Below, one piece after another: positions 13,845-26,750 of a stretch of DNA of 64,000 nucleotides. Source of the stretch: a virus (Duplodnaviria; Caudoviricetes). A model generated the notes under the pieces. That model saw only the letters and a list, made by a program, of their open reading frames with translations. It searched no databases and was not told where the DNA came from. The translations under genes and the position numbers were made by a program. The stretch covers positions 70,183-134,182 of the IMG/VR virus record IMGVR_UViG_3300011989_000005, one strand, 5' to 3'. How positions within the stretch are numbered: position 1 is the first letter of the stretch; each line of letters starts with the position of its first letter.

Positions 13845-16800
13845 CTATTCAGTTTCTGGGTCTTTCTCGCTCGCCGCCTGTACATAGCCTTCCTCATATT
13901 CTTTGCCTGAAGTATAGGGCTTGATGGGAATGCAGCCGGGTCGATTGCGGTAGAAGTAATGTACGAATACGGGCTGTGCCGACAGTTCGCGCGGCATGCG
14001 CTCACCGGTCAAAATCTCATGCCGGTAAATGTTCTTCACCTTCTTACCCACAGGTTTGCCCTGCTGGTCGAGCACAGTCAGCCATGCCCTGCTACGACGA
14101 CCACCGTTGCGGCGGTATGAAGGGGTGTTTAGGACCACGTCCGGATCCATCACGATGCCCATGCGGTTCAGGCAGGGCTTCAGACTCTTGGCGATGCGTT
14201 TCTTTGCCTTCTCGATCGTTTCATAGTTCACGCCCTCGCCCTCGCTGTCGAGCAGGCTGATAGCCATCTCTTGCGGCGGGATGGGCTGACCGATGTGAGG
14301 ATTGTTGGGGATGTCCTCAAAGTACTGCACCAGCCAGTCGGTCAGTGCGCCGTCCTTGGTCATGGCGTAGAGCTCGCGGCGCAGGCTGCGTGTCTCGGTC
14401 GGCGGAAGGATGACCTCACCGGGGTGCTGCAGATAGAATTGCGCGCAGGCCACCATGAGGTTCTGTGCCTCGTTGAGCAGGTCGGGCGGCAGGCCGTTGG
14501 CCACCTCCTGCACACCGTACTGCTCCTGGAACTCGTCGGTCGGAGTGAAGTCGAGCCAGCGTCCGTCGTCGGTGGCGGCGTGGTAGTAGTCGCTGGTGAA
14601 GCAGGGGTAGATGCGCCCTTTCACTGAGCCGCCGGATCTGTCGAAGGGCTTGTTGCTGGCGATGAATATCTTGGGAACGTCCTCGCCGCGCAGCGTGACG
14701 GGCTGTTTGTAGAGGGTCTTGATGACGATGGTGGTGCCGGTGTTGAACATATCCTCGAACTTGAAGTTGTCTGGCAGCTCGTCGATGCAGACGAGCGAGT
14801 GGACTCCTGGCACGACGTTGCCCATCATCACCTCGATGGTGATGTTCTTCATGCTCTTGCCCGCGATGTTGGCCGACGAGGGGCGCACGGTGGCCAGCAG
14901 ATCGATATCGGCGCTCTTTCCGTTACGTCCGCTGGCCTTGTTCTCGTCTGTCACGCTATAGTCAGTGATATGAACGGCCCGTTGCACGGCGCGGCTGCGG
15001 TGGCGCGTCAGGACATAGCCGAAGGCGTGGACCTTATTTATGAGGTGCATGTCCTGCATCTGTCGCTCGGTTGCTGTCAGTGTCTCACCAAAACTCTCCT
15101 TCTCCCAGAAGATGCGACCCTGGTTGTAGAGGAAGCGGAAGTGCATGGGCATCTGTTCGAGGGGCTTATCCATAATGAGACGGTATTTCCAGAGCTTCTC
15201 CCATTCCTTCCAGCGCGTGTTCTCAGCCGCACGCATGGCGGGCGTGGTGCATTGACGGCTGATGTCCTCGTGGCGTTTCTTCTCGGCCTCGTATTTCGGG
15301 TTGATGATGATGCGCCACGGCTGCGGGATGACCGTGAAGTCACCCGGCATGATAAGCTCCTCGTTGGTCAGGTAGGGCATCGAGGCATAGTCAACGGCGG
15401 TAATCTTCTCCCTGGTGACGAGCACGGCGGTATTCCCGAAGAAGAAGTAGTCGAAGTCCTCGCCGTAGCTGTGGTCGTTGACGGGCAGCGACGGCATGGT
15501 GCTCAGTGTGCGTCCGTCAAGTCCCTTGCCGGTGAAGACGGCGTTCACGAGGTTGGCCTTATAGGGCGCGTCGGCTTCGCTGATGTGCGCATCGAGCCAG
15601 TCGAGCATCGCCGTGCGGCTGACGCTCTCTAACTGGTTGCCCGTGCGCCCGTTGTCAAGCAGACGGTAGGTGTTCTTGTGCGTCAGCTGATAGAAGACCC
15701 GCTGCCCCTGGCTGCCGGCATAGCAGCGGATGCCCTTCGCCTCCAAGAACTGCAGGAGGTTGGCCACGCTCAGGACGTAGCGCACGTTGGTCTCGCGGCT
15801 CTCGCCGTCGCGGTTCTTCTTGGTCGTGGCTTTGTCTATCCAGAACTGCATCGTCAGGGCATTGTCGAGCAAGCGCATCAGCGCGGCACTGGGGTTGGCC
15901 TTGCGCAGGTCGGGGGCCAGCAGCTTCTGTATCTGCGGGAAATGCGTCACGAAGTCGGTGACGTCCTTCGCCGTTTTCATGCGGCCGTCTGTCTTGCTGA
16001 CGACCACCTGGTCCATCTCGCGTGGCAGCCGCACCCAATGCACGTTGGCGTTCTCCAGTGCGATGCTGCTGCTACTGCCGATGCCCGTCGCGTCGGCATC
16101 GTAGCATACATATATATTACAGGCCACCGCCTGCATGCGGCAGAGCAGCGCCTGCAGCCATTCCTCCACCACGCCGTCATGTATGCCCGATGTCTCGGAG
16201 TTGAGCCACAGTACATGGGCATCGGCGGCAGCCCACATCTGCATCGCGTCGCGCGGACCGGAGCACAGCACCAGTCGCTTCATCTTGTAGCAGGTATTCT
16301 TCTCTCCTTTCACCTCCCTCGTCAGTTCCACTATCGGGTGTCTGCGTTCCCGCTTCCAGTCGGCATACCAGGGGCGTTCCTGTGCGGTGGCAAATTCTTC
16401 ACTCTTCACCCTTAACTCTTCACTTTTAAGGGCCGCCACCGCCACGCTGTCGCCATACACCTTCGTCGCCACGCCCTCCTTCTTGTCCCAGTACCACTTC
16501 GTGCGGCCGCTGGCTCTCGGCTCATATTTCTTCACGCCCCAGTCGTAGGTGAAGGCGAAGATGGGGTATGACGGACGGGCATGCACCTCCAACGAGCACT
16601 TGCCGCCCTGCTTGACCTCCACCGGCCCGGTAACGAACGTTGCCACGGGGAACACGCTGAACTCGCGCTCCAGCACTGCGCCCCACTCCTGTGCAGTCTT
16701 GGTCTCTCCCCTGCCCCGCCAGTAGTTGCGGTCGAGCGAACAGCGGTACAGCGGCAGGCCGCTGTCAGGGTCGAACTCCGTCACCATGTCGCCTATCTGT

Positions 16801-17348
16801 ATCTCGGCGCGGTCGGTATCGTCGGCCTCTCCCCCACCCTGCTTTATTTTCTCCACGTCCTCCTGCTCGGCCTTGCGCCTTGCCAGCTCCACCTTGAAGC
16901 CCAGCGCCCGCAGGTGCTGCTCGGTCCAGGGTGTCAGGTGACTTGGATCGCACTCCTGCGGCTCGACGGCCTTTGTGTGCTGCTCCGGTGCGGTCGGTGC
17001 CACACCGCTTATCTCTATGCCGTGGTCATCGACGAGCCGCTGCAGCACCTCCCCCATTTGTTTCTTGGACAGCGCCGTATGGTCGTAGCCCATCAGCGCG
17101 GCCTGCAGCGAGATTGCCCCGTAGCCCCGTCGCCCGCATTTGCCGTAGCATATCCAGCCAAGCGAGTCGGCACCGCCGCTGATGGCCTGATCAACCTTGA
17201 ACGATGGTGTCCTGTCGTTGTGGTCGGGGAACGGACAATAGTACGTCGCCTTACCCTTCTTCGGCAGATGGTAAGGCTCATATCCGTTTTGCCGCATAAC
17301 ATCGACAAGTGATATCTGGTTCAGTATGTCTCTGTCCTTCTCGTTCAC
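13845..17348 (-). CDS. DNA primase-helicase
   Basis: N-terminal CHC2 zinc finger (CPFPDH...WICYGKC), Toprim-like SGPRDA / VCYDADATG, P-loop SGRNGKS, Walker B CIDE. Confidence 0.85.
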   Translation of the reverse strand: MNEKDRDILNQISLVDVMRQNGYEPYHLPKKGKATYYCPFPDHNDRTPSFKVDQAISGGADSLGWICYGKCGRRGYGAISLQAALMGYDHTALSKKQMGEVLQRLVDDHGIEISGVAPTAPEQHTKAVEPQECDPSHLTPWTEQHLRALGFKVELARRKAEQEDVEKIKQGGGEADDTDRAEIQIGDMVTEFDPDSGLPLYRCSLDRNYWRGRGETKTAQEWGAVLEREFSVFPVATFVTGPVEVKQGGKCSLEVHARPSYPIFAFTYDWGVKKYEPRASGRTKWYWDKKEGVATKVYGDSVAVAALKSEELRVKSEEFATAQERPWYADWKRERRHPIVELTREVKGEKNTCYKMKRLVLCSGPRDAMQMWAAADAHVLWLNSETSGIHDGVVEEWLQALLCRMQAVACNIYVCYDADATGIGSSSSIALENANVHWVRLPREMDQVVVSKTDGRMKTAKDVTDFVTHFPQIQKLLAPDLRKANPSAALMRLLDNALTMQFWIDKATTKKNRDGESRETNVRYVLSVANLLQFLEAKGIRCYAGSQGQRVFYQLTHKNTYRLLDNGRTGNQLESVSRTAMLDWLDAHISEADAPYKANLVNAVFTGKGLDGRTLSTMPSLPVNDHSYGEDFDYFFFGNTAVLVTREKITAVDYASMPYLTNEELIMPGDFTVIPQPWRIIINPKYEAEKKRHEDISRQCTTPAMRAAENTRWKEWEKLWKYRLIMDKPLEQMPMHFRFLYNQGRIFWEKESFGETLTATERQMQDMHLINKVHAFGYVLTRHRSRAVQRAVHITDYSVTDENKASGRNGKSADIDLLATVRPSSANIAGKSMKNITIEVMMGNVVPGVHSLVCIDELPDNFKFEDMFNTGTTIVIKTLYKQPVTLRGEDVPKIFIASNKPFDRSGGSVKGRIYPCFTSDYYHAATDDGRWLDFTPTDEFQEQYGVQEVANGLPPDLLNEAQNLMVACAQFYLQHPGEVILPPTETRSLRRELYAMTKDGALTDWLVQYFEDIPNNPHIGQPIPPQEMAISLLDSEGEGVNYETIEKAKKRIAKSLKPCLNRMGIVMDPDVVLNTPSYRRNGGRRSRAWLTVLDQQGKPVGKKVKNIYRHEILTGERMPRELSAQPVFVHYFYRNRPGCIPIKPYTSGKEYEEGYVQAASEKDPETE

Positions 17349-18277
17349 GATATATTATGGATTTTGTTCTCCACCTGCACGATGGCGCGGAATATCTCGT
17401 ACATCACCTGCGGGACGATGGCGTTGCCGTAGGCTTTGAGGGCCTCCTTCCGCCATTTGCTGAAAGGAATGGATGCTCCGTCCATCCCAATGGAAAGCCC
17501 ATCATTTCCTGAGTGTACAGGGGACTGAGTAGGGAATAGCTCCCAACGCCCGCAGCCAGCTCTTTCGGCGTCGGCAGGAGATGATGCAGAGCCAAGTCTG
17601 CCAAGCCCATCGAGTGACTGGACTCTGCCTTGTGGTTGTACCGCCTGCCCTGCCCGTTGACCTTGCTGTTCGGATGTGGATTGTCTACCACGACAGGTGT
17701 CGGCAGCAGTCCTTCGCCCGATGATGAACACGCGGTCTCTCCGGTGCGGGGCTCCAACGGCACAAGCCGGTATAAGCACCGGCTGGACTGCATATCCGTC
17801 TGCCTCGATATCACGGCAGATGCGTTCAAGGGTAAAGGTCTCTCTGAGTCGGTATCTTCGTAGTCGGTTATCCGCTCCGAATAGGTCGGCTGCGTCTGCC
17901 AGCGGAGTAACGTCGCCTTGCTCGACCATCGACGCGATTCCAGCAACGTTCTCACACACAACCCAATCGGGTCTGACTTGGTTAATACACCTGTGCATGA
18001 ACGGCCAGAGATAGCGGTCGTCGTCCGCTCCTCGTCGCTGCCCGGCGTAACTGAAAGGCTGACAAGGGAACCCTCCTGTGAGTACGTTAATTTGCCCCCC
18101 CCATTTGGAGAAGTCTGTCTTGGTGATGTCTTCATACGATTCTGCGTTTGGGTACCAGTAGTCGAGCACAGCGCGACCGAAGGGATTGATCTCGCAGTGG
18201 AACAGGTTCTCCCATCCGAGCATGCTTGCCGCCACCTCCGGACCACCGATGCCGCTGAATACTGATGCATGTGTCAT
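17345..18277 (-). CDS. DNA (cytosine-5) methyltransferase, main polypeptide
   Basis: Motifs I FSGIGG, IV GFPCQ, VI ENV, VIII PHRRDRVF and X YGNAIVPQV. Confidence 0.92.
   Translation of the reverse strand: MTHASVFSGIGGPEVAASMLGWENLFHCEINPFGRAVLDYWYPNAESYEDITKTDFSKWGGQINVLTGGFPCQPFSYAGQRRGADDDRYLWPFMHRCINQVRPDWVVCENVAGIASMVEQGDVTPLADAADLFGADNRLRRYRLRETFTLERICRDIEADGYAVQPVLIPACAVGAPHRRDRVFIIGRRTAADTCRGRQSTSEQQGQRAGQAVQPQGRVQSLDGLGRLGSASSPADAERAGCGRWELFPTQSPVHSGNDGLSIGMDGASIPFSKWRKEALKAYGNAIVPQVMYEIFRAIVQVENKIHNIS
17404..18270 (-). CDS. Nested alternative-frame ORF, probable second methyltransferase polypeptide (true start unknown)
   Basis: 288 codons open on the same strand inside the MTase gene; carries motif IX-like LSPLYTQEMMGFPLGWT and two LLPTP repeats. 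Confidence 0.55.
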   Translation of the reverse strand: MHQYSAASVVRRWRQACSDGRTCSTARSIPSVALCSTTGTQTQNRMKTSPRQTSPNGGGKLTYSQEGSLVSLSVTPGSDEERTTTAISGRSCTGVLTKSDPIGLCVRTLLESRRWSSKATLLRWQTQPTYSERITDYEDTDSERPLPLNASAVISRQTDMQSSRCLYRLVPLEPRTGETACSSSGEGLLPTPVVVDNPHPNSKVNGQGRRYNHKAESSHSMGLADLALHHLLPTPKELAAGVGSYSLLSPLYTQEMMGFPLGWTEHPFLSANGGRRPSKPTATPSSRR

Positions 18278-19676: not shown

Positions 19677-19991
19677 ATGACTGTACCAGACATCAACAAA
19701 CTGAAGCATGTCATCGCGCAGCAGCTTCACCTGTATTATGAGACACTGGAGGACGGCACGAACGTGCTCCGGCACATCCGCGTACACCAGCGCACACTTC
19801 AGATGCCCGCCGACGGCGGAGTGACCGTAGACATCGTGACACCCGACGGCAAGATAGCCGACGGCAAAGTCAACAGTCAGTCTGTAGAAGACGAGACCCT
19901 TGAGTTGCAGGACCTCTCGCCCGAGGCCCGTGAGGCTATGGAGAACCACTTCGCCACCGACGACGACGTGCGTGCCGCCCTCGGACTCTGA
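19677..19991 (+). CDS. Hypothetical virion-associated protein
   Basis: 104 aa; first gene after the late motif; C-terminus shared with the next gene. Confidence 0.7.
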   Translation: MTVPDINKLKHVIAQQLHLYYETLEDGTNVLRHIRVHQRTLQMPADGGVTVDIVTPDGKIADGKVNSQSVEDETLELQDLSPEAREAMENHFATDDDVRAALGL

Positions 19992-20086
19992 CACTTTAAG
20001 GCTGTCCAGCAGACTGCCGCACCACGGCAGCCCGCCAGCATATAGTTCACTTTATTTTTTTTACCAACACAAACAACAAAAGCAAC

Positions 20087-20533
20087 ATGGCAAGGACCAA
20101 TGCAAACAGCGCCCTTAACATGGCGCACCTCCTGCTCATCAAGCAGGCTCTTGATGCAGTGAAGACTGCAAGTGAAGGACAGGGCACCGAGCTCGCCGCC
20201 CGTATAGCAGCCCTGGAGGCTCTGCTCAACGACGGTGACAACGTGACCGCCGCCATCGACAAGTTCAACGAGATTGTCGCCTTCCTGGCCGGCATCGAGA
20301 ACACTCAGACCCTGGAGGGCATCCTGGCCGGCATCAACACCGCCATCGGTGCAAAGTACACCAAGCCCGCTGACGGCATCCCCGCCAGCGACCTGGCTGC
20401 CGCTATCCAGACCACGCTGACTAACGCTGCCACCGCCTACGGCTGGGGAGACCACGCTCAGGCCGGCTACATCGTGGGCGAGTTTGCCACCGATGCCGAG
20501 GTGCGCACAGCTCTTGGGCTGCCCGCCGAGTAA
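20087..20533 (+). CDS. Fibre-like helical structural protein
   Basis: AIDKFNEIVAFLAGI and KYTKPADGIPASDL segments resemble phage fibre repeats. Confidence 0.65.
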   Translation: MARTNANSALNMAHLLLIKQALDAVKTASEGQGTELAARIAALEALLNDGDNVTAAIDKFNEIVAFLAGIENTQTLEGILAGINTAIGAKYTKPADGIPASDLAAAIQTTLTNAATAYGWGDHAQAGYIVGEFATDAEVRTALGLPAE

Positions 20534-20548
20534 GCCTCTTCCGCTCAC

Positions 20549-20582
20549 GGAGAGCCCGGAAAGTCCGGGTTCTCCTTTCTTC
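20549..20582 (+). terminator. Intrinsic terminator-like hairpin
   Basis: ggagagcccgga-aag-tccgggttctcc followed by tttctt. Confidence 0.6.
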
Positions 20583-20606
20583 ACCTCTTAACAGCAAAAC
20601 AAGAAT

Positions 20607-21053
20607 ATGCCAAACAATAACACTCTTGAAAAGGCCGTCAACCTCGGGCATCTGCAGATGGCTTATAAAGCCGGAGCATTGCTGCCCGTGGACATCTCGA
20701 CGCTCACGCCTGCATCGACGTTCCCCAAGAACGCCGTCATCGGCATCGGCGGCGTGCTCTACCGCGCCAAGCGGGCCACGGCCTCGATGCCGCTGACGAT
20801 GGTGGTGAGCGACGGCAAGTTCGTCACCCATGAGGTGAACGGACAGAAGGCCTTCGTCGTGCAGGACATGACCGTCAACGCCGACTGGGATGTGTGGATG
20901 GATGCCGGGCTCAGCTACGCCTACTCGCTTGCCGACCAAAGAATCACGGCACTGGAGACCGAGACCTACACCGCCAACGGAGAACAATACACGCGCCGAC
21001 AATTACTGCAGGCCGTGGCCGAGCTGATGCAGAAAACCATTGTCACGCAGTGA
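20607..21053 (+). CDS. Hypothetical fibre-associated protein
   Basis: 148 aa ORF directly upstream of the DGR target. Confidence 0.7.
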   Translation: MPNNNTLEKAVNLGHLQMAYKAGALLPVDISTLTPASTFPKNAVIGIGGVLYRAKRATASMPLTMVVSDGKFVTHEVNGQKAFVVQDMTVNADWDVWMDAGLSYAYSLADQRITALETETYTANGEQYTRRQLLQAVAELMQKTIVTQ

Positions 21054-21100
21054 CATTATGGCTCTTGAAATATATCACGAAAACAAAAAAAACTACAATC

Positions 21101-22006
21101 ATGGCAGACAACATTGGAATAGTTACTATTCAAGAAGCGCTGAAGAACGTGCAGAACGGTCTCACGGCGCAAGACACGGCGTCGAAGACACAGACACAGA
21201 TGATCTTCGGACCCGACGGAGCACCTAACGGCAAGATACCCCTCTCGACCGATGCCGTCATCGACCTGAAGACAGGCAAGAAACTCTCCGACATCCTGGA
21301 ATACCAGAAGCCCTACGTCGACTCGGAACTCTTCGTAGACATGGGCCTGCCCTCCGGCACGCTCTGGGCCAAGGCCTCCATCGACCTCACCACGCCGTCG
21401 AAATTCCAGGAGGTGGACGGCGCAGTATCGCCCTTCAAGTACGAGTGCTCATTCTTCTCTTGGGGCAACCAGGACGGACACAATCCCAGCAGCACATCAG
21501 CCTTCGACTACAACTGGGGCGGCGTGAACGAGCAGGAGCCCTACTACGACGGACAGCCCTACGGCACGACACCCGGCAACGCCCTCACGGGCAACATACC
21601 GCCCTCGATGGACGCCGCGCGCGCCTGCCTCGGTGCGCCCTGGCGCATGCCAAGCATGGAGGACTTTTCGGAACTGTTCGCCAATATCGACTACATCGAC
21701 GCCGACGGCAACGTGGTGACGGCAGAGACCAGCATCGCCAAGACGGCTGCCGACAAGCGCGTGACGGTAAACGGCATCAACGGCCTCTACCTGCGCTCGA
21801 AGATCAACGGTAATCGTCTTTTCCTTCCGGCGTCCGGCCTCGGCTATGGCCGTTCGTGGGGCCATCGCACGGGCAATGGCTACTTCTGGTCGTCGGCGTT
21901 CCATTCGGCTCGCGGCGCCCGGTACCTGTCCTTCAATCCGCATGGTGTCGACCCGCAGGACACGAGCGGTCGGTACGGCGGTTTCCCGGTTCGGCCGGTC
22001 CAGTAA
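21101..22006 (+). CDS. DGR target protein (C-type lectin-like fold, probable receptor-binding protein)
   Basis: ATG 21101 after an A-rich leader; VDMGLPSGTLWA, WRMPS, LFLPASG, YFWSS and GFPVRPV motifs; 3' end is the VR. Confidence 0.9.
   Translation: MADNIGIVTIQEALKNVQNGLTAQDTASKTQTQMIFGPDGAPNGKIPLSTDAVIDLKTGKKLSDILEYQKPYVDSELFVDMGLPSGTLWAKASIDLTTPSKFQEVDGAVSPFKYECSFFSWGNQDGHNPSSTSAFDYNWGGVNEQEPYYDGQPYGTTPGNALTGNIPPSMDAARACLGAPWRMPSMEDFSELFANIDYIDADGNVVTAETSIAKTAADKRVTVNGINGLYLRSKINGNRLFLPASGLGYGRSWGHRTGNGYFWSSAFHSARGARYLSFNPHGVDPQDTSGRYGGFPVRPVQ
21817..22003 (+). repeat. DGR variable repeat (VR)
   Basis: 187 bp ungapped match to 22961-23147 with 22 mismatches, all opposite TR adenines. Confidence 0.97.
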
Positions 22007-22038
22007 TACTTCCGCCCGAACCATTCCTTTGTGCGCTT

Positions 22039-22080
22039 CACTGCTGCACCGCCGCGCCCCAGCGCGGCACAGCAGCAGTG
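22039..22080 (+). other. Hairpin or cruciform downstream of the VR
   Basis: cactgctgc / gcagcagtg outer stem and gccgcgc-ccca-gcgcggc inner stem. Confidence 0.7.
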
Positions 22081-22127
22081 GGGCGGACGAAGGAAACCAA
22101 CAGAAAAAATAACAGACAAATAGAGAT

Positions 22128-22808
22128 ATGTCAACAGAACAGACACAACAACAGAACCAGCCGTCTGCCAAAGTCCAGCTGCTCAGGCAGCAGGGCGAGC
22201 GGAAGGGATTCACCAACCAGGAAATCCAGACCATCGAGGCCGACAGGAAGGAGCCTGAGAAGTGGAACGTGGTTCATTTGCTGCGCGATGGAAACTACTG
22301 GCACGCCAACGAGTGGAGCGCGTGGCTGGTGGCTGTGGTCATCACCTCGCAGATGAAGCGCCTGCACCCCGACATGGAGATTGACCCGCCCACGCCGGTG
22401 AAGAAATTCGCCAAGAACATCAACGGTGAATACATCTTCGTGGGATTCCAGGAGAAGTCGTTCGACAAGTACCTGCCCAAGGAACTGGTGCTCGACTGGC
22501 GCGACGTGGAGGACGGGCGCATAGACGTGCCCGTCCAGATGCCCGACGACCACGGCGAGCTGACCTATGAGCGCCTGCAGGCCGCTTATCAGAAGTGGAA
22601 GAGCGAACAGCCGCTGTCGAATGAGAAGGGCAAGAAAGAAAGCACCAACGGCGACCGTCAGGGCCGTGGCGGCGCGATGGGCGATACGCCCGGCCACATC
22701 CTCGCCATCATGGGGCGCATCATGTCGCTGCCGCTTCACCGCACGTCGCCGATAGATGCTCACAAATTCCTCGAAGAGGTGCAGCGCGAACTGCTGGCGC
22801 ATCTCTAA
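22128..22808 (+). CDS. DGR accessory protein, MutS-like (MSL-type) rather than Avd
   Basis: Lies between VR and TR; VVHLLRDGNYWHANEWSAW and YIFVGF resemble MutS domain I; C-terminal SPIDAHKFLEEVQ helix. Confidence 0.65.
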   Translation: MSTEQTQQQNQPSAKVQLLRQQGERKGFTNQEIQTIEADRKEPEKWNVVHLLRDGNYWHANEWSAWLVAVVITSQMKRLHPDMEIDPPTPVKKFAKNINGEYIFVGFQEKSFDKYLPKELVLDWRDVEDGRIDVPVQMPDDHGELTYERLQAAYQKWKSEQPLSNEKGKKESTNGDRQGRGGAMGDTPGHILAIMGRIMSLPLHRTSPIDAHKFLEEVQRELLAHL

Positions 22809-22960
22809 ACAAAAACTGATAACCCATAAAAAAGAATGGTCCGGAAGTATTTCATAGGTCGCCCGTCATGCCCCCGCAGGGGGTGTGAAACAGTGAAGAG
22901 ACAGTCTGGTCTTGCCACGTGCAACCCCTCGCTGCCGTCGTGTAAGGTGGCGACCGAAGC

Positions 22961-23147
22961 TCTTTTCCTTCCGGCGTCCGGCAACGGCAATGGCCGTTCG
23001 TGGAACAATCGCACGGGCAATGGCAACTTCTGGTCGTCGACGTTCAATTCGGCTCGCAACGCCCGGAACCTGAACTTCAATCCGAATGGTGTCAACCCGC
23101 AGAACACGAACAATCGGTACAACGGTTTCCCGGTTCGGCCGGTCCAG
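22961..23147 (+). repeat. DGR template repeat (TR)
   Basis: 17 AAC/AAT codons in the VR frame; directly upstream of the RT. Confidence 0.97.
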
Positions 23148-23190
23148 CAATCTCAGCGGCCATTCTTTCTCTTCTTAACGCCACCGTCTG

Positions 23191-24387
23191 ATGACGCTTA
23201 CCTATCCACAACTGCTGCGCGACCTGCACGTGGCCTTCGCCAGTGCTGCCCGCCACAAGGGCAAGATGAGCTACGTCCGCCACTTCCGCTCACAGCTGCG
23301 CCTGAACCTGGCGTGCCTGGCACTGGTGCTCATCCTGCGTCGCTACGTGCCGCTGCCGTCGCGGTGCTTCATCGTGTTCCATCCCAAGCAGAGAGAGGTG
23401 TTCGCGGCGCAGTTTCCCGACAGGGTGGTGCATCATCTGTACTTCTATTATACCCACTGGCTCTACGAGGCGACGTTCATACGCGACTCGTACTCGTGCA
23501 TCGAGCATCGCGGCACGCTCGACGGCATCCTGCGGCTGGCGCAGCACATCCGGCAGGAGAGCCGCGGCTATACCCGCGAGTGCTACATCCTGAAGCTCGA
23601 CATTCGCGGCTATTTTATGCACATCGACAGACGGCGGCTGCTCAGGATATGTCTCTCGACGCTCGACAGGATGGCCACGCACCGATTGCCGAAGGAGGCA
23701 GCAGCGGTGCTCGGCGTATCACCACGGAGCACGTGGCAGCAGGTGCTCGACATGGACTTCGTGCGCTGGCTGACGGAGGTCATCGCCATGCTCGACCCGA
23801 AGACATCCTGCGAGAGGGCTATGCCCATCGAGGCGTGGAACGGTCTCGATCCCGCAAAGTCGCTCTTCTGCACGGAGGACGGGTGCGGACTGCCCATCGG
23901 CAACCTGACCTCGCAGCTGCTGTCGAACGTCTACCTGAACGTGCTCGACCAGTTTATGAAGCGTGTGCTGAAATGCCGTCGCTATGGCCGCTACGTGGAC
24001 GACTTCTACGTCGTGTCGTGCGACCGCGAGTGGCTGCTGCAGCTGGTTCCGAAGGTGCGGCGGTTCCTGAAGCAGGAGCTTGCACTCGACCTGCACATGG
24101 GAAAGGTGTGCATCTGCCGCTCGACGCAGGGCGTGGAGTTCCTGGGAGCCTACGTCCGTCCGTGGCACATCACGCCGTCGGCAGCCTCGCTGCGGCACAT
24201 ACACCGCCATCTGCGCGAGATGGACTTCAGCCGTCCCGACAAGGTGGTGCGCACGGTCAACTCCTACCTCGGCATCCTGCGCCAGACGGCCAGCTACCGC
24301 CTGCGCCGCGAGCTGTTCTTCCGGCCCGAGTACCTGCGCATCGGCCACTTCGACGCCGACATGACCTGTATGCAGCGAGCCGCATAG
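23191..24387 (+). CDS. DGR reverse transcriptase
   Basis: PKQREVFAAQFPDRVVHH, LKLDIRGYF, GLPIGNLTSQ (SQ signature) and YVDD. Confidence 0.96.
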   Translation: MTLTYPQLLRDLHVAFASAARHKGKMSYVRHFRSQLRLNLACLALVLILRRYVPLPSRCFIVFHPKQREVFAAQFPDRVVHHLYFYYTHWLYEATFIRDSYSCIEHRGTLDGILRLAQHIRQESRGYTRECYILKLDIRGYFMHIDRRRLLRICLSTLDRMATHRLPKEAAAVLGVSPRSTWQQVLDMDFVRWLTEVIAMLDPKTSCERAMPIEAWNGLDPAKSLFCTEDGCGLPIGNLTSQLLSNVYLNVLDQFMKRVLKCRRYGRYVDDFYVVSCDREWLLQLVPKVRRFLKQELALDLHMGKVCICRSTQGVEFLGAYVRPWHITPSAASLRHIHRHLREMDFSRPDKVVRTVNSYLGILRQTASYRLRRELFFRPEYLRIGHFDADMTCMQRAA

Positions 24388-24473
24388 CGGAAATCTCCCT
24401 CCGTCCCGTATGCTGCGATGGTATCGCAGCCTCACGATAAAATCATTATTCACCCATTTAAATAATTATCACA

Positions 24474-25590: not shown

Positions 25591-25598
25591 TAACTTTG
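25591..25598 (+). promoter_or_regulatory. Bacteroidetes -7 promoter box for the six-gene cassette
   Basis: TAACTTTG, about 70 nt upstream of ATG 25668. Confidence 0.6.
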
Positions 25599-25667
25599 CC
25601 CGTGGGTTCGGATTTCCCGACCCGCGAGTTAATTCACATTATTCACCAACACAAACACTTTACAACA

Positions 25668-26750
25668 ATGAGTGACATGAAAGTTTTCTCTATTCCCGAC
25701 TCGAACGGCGGCAATGGAGGTAATGCGCTTGCCAACGGCATCGTGCCCTTCATGCTCGGAGCGGGCATGAGCGGCGGCATGGGCTTCGGTGGCTTCGGCG
25801 GCGGCTATGGCGGATGGAACGCCATGAATATGAACAACATCACAGAGCTGTTCGCCATGGGCATCCTCGCCAGCATGTTCGGATGGAACGGTAACGGCGG
25901 CTTCGGCGGCATGGGAGGCGCAAACGGCGTAGGGTTCCTCGCCAACCAGCTGAACAACGACAACGGGCGTGAGCTGATTATGCAGGCCGTCACCTCGCAG
26001 GGCGAACAGGCACGCACGGCTACGCAGACCCTTTCGACCATGCTCGGCCAGGACTTCAACCTCGTCAACAGCGGCATCCAGCTCATCCAGAGCTCGCTGT
26101 CAAGCATCGCTGCCCAGCAGGGCATGACTCCGCTGCAGATCATCAACAGCATCCAGGCTGGCAACGCAGCCCTGAGCCAGCAGCTCTGTCAGTGCTGCTG
26201 CGACAACAAGTTCGCTATCGCCGAACAGACATCTCAGCTGCAGCAGGGCATGAACACCGGCTTCAACGGCGTGCAGATGGGTCTGAACACTGGTTTCAAC
26301 GGTGTAGAGCGCGGTCTCTCTGGCATCCAGACGCAGATGGCTCTCAACGCAGGCAAGGACGAGCTGGCCACCTGCCAGCAGACCTACATCCTCACCGACG
26401 GCGCGAACCGCAACACGCAGGCCGTTCTGGCCAAGCTCGACGCTATGCAGACCCAGGTGCTGCAGGACAAGCTCGATGCTGCCCGCGAGAAGAACACACA
26501 ACTGGCCGGCGAGATTTCGCAGCTTAACCAGAACCAGTACATCGCTGGTGTGGTAGGTCAGACGATGGCTCCCGTGAACGCACAGCTCGCTGCCCTGAAC
26601 AAGGAGGTGGACGACATCAAGTGCAAGCTGCCTAACACCGTGAACGTGCAGTACCCGAACCTGGTGGCTGTCAACGCTACGCCTTACGTGAGCGGCGGCA
26701 TCTATCCTAACGGAATGTTCGGAGGCTACGGCGGCAACTACGGTTTCTAA
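25668..26750 (+). CDS. Gly-rich, coiled-coil protein with CQCCC motif (function unknown)
   Basis: ATG 25668 after an AC-rich leader; Gly/Phe/Met-rich hydrophobic N-terminus, Gln-rich helices, 11-aa tandem duplication. Confidence 0.85.
   Translation: MSDMKVFSIPDSNGGNGGNALANGIVPFMLGAGMSGGMGFGGFGGGYGGWNAMNMNNITELFAMGILASMFGWNGNGGFGGMGGANGVGFLANQLNNDNGRELIMQAVTSQGEQARTATQTLSTMLGQDFNLVNSGIQLIQSSLSSIAAQQGMTPLQIINSIQAGNAALSQQLCQCCCDNKFAIAEQTSQLQQGMNTGFNGVQMGLNTGFNGVERGLSGIQTQMALNAGKDELATCQQTYILTDGANRNTQAVLAKLDAMQTQVLQDKLDAAREKNTQLAGEISQLNQNQYIAGVVGQTMAPVNAQLAALNKEVDDIKCKLPNTVNVQYPNLVAVNATPYVSGGIYPNGMFGGYGGNYGF

Follow-up and report, generated by a model that had tools for sequence, protein, structure and literature searches.

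No natural system other than diversity-generating retroelements (DGRs) is known to hypermutate proteins in a targeted way, and DGRs are being developed as directed-evolution tools. The MutS-like (MSL) class of DGR accessory genes was defined by Wu in 2018 (PMC5758913) in 16 of 372 DGRs; the encoded proteins measure 112 to 283 aa with a pI of 7.2 ± 1.7, and in the accessible part of that paper avd is present in all 16 cassettes. The same source gives 26% of DGRs as lacking avd, proposes Avd-independent homing, and reports that avd was sought in trans in the genomes of avd-less DGRs and none was found. The avd-less lineage 3 carries the accessory protein CH1, with a length of 160 to 169 aa, a pI of 4.7 ± 0.2 and no motifs in the description given there. 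In Bacteroides, Avd-like genes were described in five DGRs and Msl in three, Bfr, Bth and Bun (Macadangdang 2024, bioRxiv 2024.11.15.621889); these three are the low-activity ones, so that Msl is not simply an activator. In the same preprint, deletion of the host mutS gene in B. ovatus raised VR mutagenesis 5- to 10-fold. MSL is merely listed, or taken as pointing to a possible connection with mismatch repair, in PMC10053308, PMC8632793, and bioRxiv 10.64898/2026.07.21.739853. Within the DGR, MSL and Avd literature, whose supplements may list such cases, we found no MSL-only cassette, no MSL::Avd fusion and no tested function of MSL. A preliminary description of the locus reported here had assigned its accessory gene to a published class with no established function, which agrees with the account in PMC5758913.

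An MSL cassette in a rumen/gut phage

The stretch of DNA analyzed (64,000 nucleotides, hereafter the window) comprises bases 70183 to 134182 of a 134,182-bp virus record (IMGVR_UViG_3300011989_000005) that is rated complete by CheckV. Near-identical copies of the phage are present in metagenome runs from bovine, sheep and other animal gut, and the phage that hosts the cassette is a rumen/gut phage. The window contains an intact DGR in the order target/VR-MSL-TR-RT with all parts on the plus strand. The target gene (21101–22006, +) encodes 301 aa from the ATG at 21101, its open frame extending back to a GTG at 20894, and residues 131 to 300 give weak matches to Fib_succ_major/FISUMP (E 0.006–0.015, below the cut-offs); the product is probably a phage receptor-binding or tail protein. 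VR (21817–22007, +; 191 nt, mutable core 21839–21978) encodes the variable C-terminus of the target, ends at the target stop codon, and is 88% identical to TR (22961–23151, +), which contains 42 adenines among its 191 nt; the 140-nt core at 22983–23122 accounts for 39 of these. Twenty-two of the 23 mismatches between the two copies fall on TR adenines (15 at codon position 1, 7 at position 2 and none elsewhere), and the 23rd is the stop codon itself, TAA in VR and CAA in TR. Because the mismatches sit at adenines of the downstream copy, the upstream copy is VR and the downstream copy TR. The reverse transcriptase (RT; 23191–24387, +; 398 aa) matches phrog_1423 (E 2.3e-73) and RVT_1, shows the motifs IGNLTSQ and YVDD in its translation, and has as its best solved relative 8ub7_A, annotated 'Reverse transcriptase' (E 4.7e-27). 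With an adenine-biased TR/VR pair, a VR at the 3' end of the target gene and a DGR-type RT, the locus is a DGR. A GC-rich imperfect inverted repeat (22024–22095; 34-nt arms, 4-nt loop, 79% complementary) starts 17 nt downstream of VR; by analogy with the VR of BPP-1, which has a hairpin downstream, it could form a target-site hairpin or cruciform, act as a terminator, or both.

The statement in the preliminary description that the accessory slot does not hold Avd is borne out, and the cassette as a whole has no recognizable Avd: PF05635, TIGR02436 and the DGR-specific PF22296 (bAvd) gave no matches, even at E 1 to 10, anywhere in the 134-kb phage; PF05635 and PF22296 gave none in five related phage records, of which four are complete; and the small ORFs neighboring the accessory gene had no Avd-like matches. 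Contigs, not reads, from four metagenome runs of four studies were compared over 21100–24400, and 40 rows of the 232 in the resulting difference list were available. Among these 40 rows, at least 24 places in VR (25 rows) differ among the four runs, and 22 of the 24 listed places lie at TR adenines. These adenines make up 22% of the repeat, so that an even spread of differences would put about 5 places on them. Each run carries its own VR haplotype, and the differences listed include 3 in TR and 2 in the MSL gene (681 nt). Given this sample-to-sample variation of VR at TR adenines, the element appears to work without Avd, and it appears to be active in nature. This variation argues for Avd-independent operation. 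The Avd-independent mechanism put forward earlier is therefore supported insofar as VR varies at TR adenines with no recognizable Avd, but it is left qualified in that a host gene may supply Avd in trans, an alternative weighed below.

Within the RT, residues 168 to 227 include about 55 extra residues between the two blocks that align with 8ub7_A, and C207, W216 and L219 in this stretch are invariant among MSL-linked RTs. The stretch is probably not MSL-specific, because a single-piece tblastn match to the RT of the Avd-type Bacteroides phage F2 spans it. Upstream of the target, two small ORFs at 19677–19991 and 20087–20533 (both +) end in nearly the same motif (DDDVRAALGL and DAEVRTALGL) and have no family matches; they may be tail-fiber-associated paralogs. 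The region at 13845–18277 (−) contains a 1167-aa open frame (13845–17348) and then a C-5 cytosine DNA methylase (PF00145, E 7.9e-34), which are ordinary phage replication and anti-restriction genes. A 384-aa protein encoded at 25596–26750 (+), with low-complexity ends rich in Gly, Asn and Met and a coiled-coil-like middle, has no family match.

The accessory protein and its relationship to MutS domain I

The MSL-type accessory gene, P0001, occupies 22128–22808 (+) between VR and TR, exactly where the 226-aa ORF had been described. Its product begins with a Q-rich basic tail (residues 1–27), followed by a MutS-domain-I-like core (residues 28–160; nt 22209–22607, +), a basic Gly-rich linker that is disordered in the model (residues 161–186) and a C-terminal two-helix hairpin (residues 187–226; nt 22686–22805, +), whose helices span residues 189–199 and 208–225 in the AlphaFold model. 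Forty-one relatives among 90%-identity clusters are 46 to 97% identical over the aligned part, and an exhaustive HMMER scan returned 237 representatives at E ≤ 1e-3, mostly of 175 to 200 aa. P0001 is a real, conserved gene, since its relatives are numerous and the listed differences across the four runs are few in it, 2 in 681 nt as against 24 places in the 191-nt VR. The protein has a pI of 6.1 (5.1 for the core), close to the family mean of 6.0 ± 0.8, and the family ranges over 173 to 226 aa and pI 5.0 to 8.65.

Searches with P0001 alone found no match in PHROG, NCBIfam or PDB sequences (phmmer) and only one chance-level match in Pfam; none was found with the family profile against PDB chains, nor by tblastn of P0001 and a typical bacterial member, P0084, against 50,697 GenBank phage records. 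In the ESM Atlas, P0001 matches unnamed clusters, one of which has MutS_I on 17% of its members. At the level of the family, hhalign against an alignment of MutS domain I (24 Bacteroidales MutS N-termini and one canonical MutS_I protein of the same phage) gave a probability of 95% and an E-value of 3.6e-8 over 58 columns, and 18 of 99 relatives match Pfam MutS_I (PF01624) at E ≤ 0.01, the best at 9.9e-5. A six-frame PF01624 search of 34 Bacteroidales genomes that carry MSL recovered a bona fide MutS in all 34 and, in the same genomes, 12 MSL ORFs at E ≤ 0.1, with 7 above the Pfam gathering cut-off. By these profile comparisons the resemblance to MutS domain I exceeds chance at the family level, and to that extent the domain I motifs noted earlier are upheld.

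The hhalign register pairs IHLfkEGxFxRAYEWSAWL of MSL with LLFRcGDFYEtYxxDA of MutS and FVGFPxxSLxKYiP with MAGFPxHALDtYLPKL, and places G55-N-Y57-W-H59 of P0001 on the G-D-F-Y-E of MutS. The Phe and Glu of the MutS Phe-X-Glu motif are mismatch contacts. The Phe position is aromatic in 98 of 99 family members (Phe in 82, Trp in 12, Tyr in 4; Y57 in P0001), whereas the Glu position is mostly Arg (76 of 99) or His (17), with Lys in 2 and Glu in 1; P0001 has H59 there, and thus keeps the aromatic of the motif but not its acid. The core of MSL is homologous to bacterial MutS domain I (PF01624), with the G-x-(F/Y/W) element and the (V/A)GFP...(K/t)Y(L/I)P strand-helix conserved in both. P0001 differs from MutS in lacking the connector, core, clamp and ATPase domains, no matches to other MutS domains being found, and MSL adds a strand and helix with an invariant W157 as well as the C-terminal hairpin.

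AlphaFold gave a poor model (pLDDT 68) from 23 close relatives and a mean pLDDT of 87 from 99 diverse relatives. The latter model has an α/β core followed by a helical hairpin and no four-helix bundle, in agreement with the earlier claim of an α/β fold unlike the four-helix Avd. Residues 29 to 129 of the model align structurally with residues 13 to 112 of E. coli MutS, the match being confined to domain I and a generic hairpin; the proposed likeness to the MutS C-terminal helix did not hold up, the hairpin matching it no better than it matches any hairpin. Foldseek searches of the PDB with the models of pLDDT 68 and 87 gave no match at E ≤ 0.001. The earlier reading of the protein as resembling MutS domain I, and not Avd, is supported.

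P0001 and Avd share a slot between the target gene and TR-RT, which in Bacteroides phage F2 (MT806186) holds a 127-aa 'putative bAvd'. They have little else in common: Avd is a basic four-helix bundle of about 110 to 130 aa, whereas P0001 is an acidic-to-neutral α/β protein with a two-helix hairpin, its pI of 6.1 compares with 9.5 ± 0.7 for the Avd proteins described in PMC5758913, and no sequence or profile similarity to Avd (PF22296, PF05635) was found with Pfam or hhalign. Like the MSL proteins of PMC5758913 and those of Bfr, Bth and Bun, as far as these are described, P0001 is small and roughly neutral in charge. Its homology to MutS domain I, its position inside a DGR cassette beside TR and RT, its length of 226 aa and its near-neutral pI identify it, on sequence grounds, as a member of the MSL class, and from the shared relationship to PF01624 we infer that the P0001 family and the published class are the same.

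MutS-related sequences were also seen elsewhere. Outside the window (G000:C1, about 19785–20984; L001:1474–2673, +), the phage has a further gene for a MutS-related protein, this one of 399 aa, with a canonical N-terminal MutS domain I (PF01624, 88–89 bits; GDFYE intact) and a remainder of about 290 residues that has no family match. In two Bacteroidales genomes, MutS_I domains (82 and 77 bits) lie in giant open frames of 3372 and 6205 aa (G022:C84:14289–14558 and G036:C17:90977–91246), and the G036 frame shares its contig with an MSL-DGR about 25 kb apart.

Related loci, Avd fusions and the RT tree

MSL relatives are encoded at 6 viral loci and at 80 loci in Bacteroidales genomes. At 47 of the loci, including the window, a full-length MSL gene lies upstream of a same-strand RT, the two being separated by a median of 363 nt. 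An A-biased TR/VR pair, defined as one of 80 nt or more in which TR adenines account for 70% or more of the mismatches, is present at 38 of these 47, and in 35 VR lies just upstream of MSL, ending a median of 146 nt before it. An all-against-all comparison of 1,028 flanking ORFs found only the VR/TR-encoded segment and one tail-associated gene to be conserved; the latter occurs at 7 loci, some of them in phages, and the downstream ORF of the window at this position encodes a DUF4376 protein. The order target/VR-MSL-TR-RT without Avd defines a large DGR clade of Bacteroidales and phages, and this layout is common in Bacteroidales. Whereas all 16 MSL cassettes of PMC5758913 and the three of Bacteroides carry avd or an Avd-like gene in the descriptions accessible to us, the window and the 46 other loci have none, and the Avd-less MSL cassette is new in comparison with a published class known only together with avd. 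The avd-less DGRs of PMC5758913 likewise have no avd, but in that account they carry CH1 or no accessory gene, whereas the MSL family is MutS-I-like; in a comparison by description only, the family's lengths and pI values do not fit CH1.

Neither PF05635 nor PF22296 matched within 5 kb of the 34 primary Bacteroidales MSL loci, and the nearest matches on the same contigs lie 5.7, 9, 14, 37 and 126 kb away. Elsewhere in the genomes, unlinked PF05635 genes were found in 27 of 34 at E ≤ 0.1, with 22 over the cut-off; the 7 genomes with no such match at this threshold are all incomplete MAGs. The PF05635 genes of MSL hosts are of the generic 23S-rRNA-IVP type; they are multicopy and show no linkage to the DGR.

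Three joins of MSL and Avd were found, all as secondary MSL matches and as rare relatives. In G031 and G016, single ORFs of 254 and 247 aa combine an N-terminal MutS_I domain (30.5 and 23.7 bits, respectively) with a C-terminal bAvd domain (32.2 and 29.0 bits), and the G031 fusion is flanked by a 692-aa target and an RT; in G017, a 177-aa MSL is followed 13 nt on by a 119-aa Avd, with the RT downstream. The MSL::Avd fusion family comprises 13 clusters, including one that bears the NCBI name 'four helix bundle protein', and some of the longer published MSLs may be fusions of this kind. In hhalign, the MSL family aligned with the fusions at 99.7% over P0001 residues 1 to 170 and with nothing beyond. 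Homology thus ends at residue 170, so a member of the family ends either in the hairpin or in a complete Avd as its C-terminal module. With pI values of 8.2–9.3 the fusions are basic, in contrast to the hairpin forms (mean 6.0 ± 0.8). The idea that the hairpin is half of an Avd was rejected, as hhalign showed no profile similarity between it and the Avd part of the fusions. The fusions argue for a physical association of MSL with the RT/Avd machinery in its work.

In the RT tree, 32 MSL-only loci and the MSL+Avd locus form a clade (support 98/97); the fusion locus falls outside it, as does Bacteroides phage F2, which has Avd only. Four other phage RTs are the neighbors of the window RT (100/97), and the MSL+Avd RT falls near the base of the MSL clade (95/78). 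The branches are long and the root is a midpoint one, so that the tree does not tell in which order Avd was lost or gained.

Further MSL-related loci were recorded. In a related 141.6-kb phage record (L002, 2445–5253), a region with 86 to 92% DNA identity to the window has lost the equivalent of 22566–24185, which covers the C-terminal part of MSL, TR in its normal position and the greater part of the RT. The loss has produced a chimeric open frame, MSL-N/RT-C; the target gene region is also present there in a second copy, and the locus looks like a decayed DGR. About 20 Bacteroidales loci (L066–L087) have only the first 50 to 85 residues of MSL, often in ORFs of 65 to 130 aa with no RT nearby, and may be MSL remnants or a separate mini-protein family.

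Possible roles of MSL in retrohoming

We tentatively favor, at somewhat less than even confidence, a role for MSL as a retrohoming component that engages mispaired nucleic acid, evades host MutS and replaces the contribution of Avd. MSL would belong physically to the retrohoming machinery and dock there by its C-terminal module, in place of which some relatives have an entire bAvd domain fused at that position. The face that resembles MutS-I, with the mismatch-stacking aromatic kept and the partner Glu changed to Arg or His, would engage the mispaired product of adenine mutagenesis, be it the heteroduplex of cDNA and VR or the hybrid of RNA and cDNA, and this engagement would stop host MutS from reverting the mutagenesis event; the rationale for shielding is the rise in VR mutagenesis on deletion of mutS in B. 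ovatus. In the Avd-less clade, MSL would in addition take over what Avd contributes to RT function. Several observations count against this favored role. An acidic core would not be expected of a protein that binds nucleic acid, Phe-X-Glu has lost its Glu, P0001 by itself has no family match and Foldseek gave nothing significant; host four-helix-bundle genes are common, the three Bacteroides DGRs with Msl are reported as low-activity, and the evidence for activity comes from contigs, with 40 of 232 difference rows listed. The protein would also be acting as an isolated MutS domain I, whereas MutS owes its affinity to its clamp and ATPase domains. A bolder form, which we consider doubtful, is that the clade runs a second DGR mechanism, in which an RT-tethered MutS-domain-I module replaces Avd and hides the heteroduplex from host repair; the MSL::Avd fusions and the MSL+Avd cassettes would then be evolutionary intermediates.

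It is possible, though we think it unlikely, that MSL is purely an RT cofactor, an Avd analog that binds RT and TR RNA for cDNA synthesis and in which the MutS-I fold is only a scaffold that plays no part in mismatch binding or repair. MSL sits in the slot of the F2 bAvd, Avd is absent from the 47 loci with the MSL layout, the bAvd fusions of relatives place MSL in the same complex, and the RT tree separates the MSL loci, with support, from the Avd-only phage. However, P0001 is not basic as Avd is, and the retention of the MutS-type aromatic in nearly all relatives suggests that the MutS-like face is used. MSL is moreover kept where Avd is present (at L090 and in the fusions), so the two are not redundant.

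We regard as improbable the proposal that MSL is an anti-repair decoy, an acidic mimic of domain I that would bind host MutS, MutL or a partner and block repair locally without touching DNA. The acidity of the core and the limit that host MutS sets on DGR output, as reported for B. ovatus, would suit such a decoy, and the 399-aa canonical MutS_I protein encoded outside the window suggests that the phage invests in MutS-related functions. We know of no MutS interaction through domain I alone, however, and the strict cis-linkage to TR-RT together with the Avd fusions fits an RNP component better than a free inhibitor.

Quite improbable, in our view, is a supply of Avd in trans by a host four-helix-bundle gene, which would make MSL an add-on, as in the MSL+avd cassettes already published, and the mechanism not Avd-independent. 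Such genes do exist in most of the Bacteroidales genomes examined, and the published MSL DGRs all had avd in the accessible account (PMC5758913); yet 7 of the 34 genomes, albeit incomplete ones, gave no match, the genes present are generic, multicopy and unlinked to the DGR, and the same paper reports finding no avd in trans in genomes with avd-less DGRs. That P0001 is an unrelated phage gene that merely happens to lie between VR and TR, as its own want of a family match might suggest, is contradicted by synteny, the same gene occupying the same place at 47 loci in phage and bacterial backgrounds with otherwise unrelated flanks, and can be set aside as highly improbable.

MSL may guard mismatched intermediates, replace Avd, or do both. 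A compact four-part cassette that is abundant in gut and rumen Bacteroidales and apparently active in nature makes two questions testable: what role MutS-like accessory genes play, and whether mutagenic retrohoming can proceed without Avd. If MSL shields the heteroduplex, the escape of DGRs from host repair, which lowers their output 5- to 10-fold, would be accounted for, and MSL would offer a portable part for engineered DGRs, which, according to the accessible part of bioRxiv 10.64898/2026.07.21.739853, currently rely on dominant-negative MutL.
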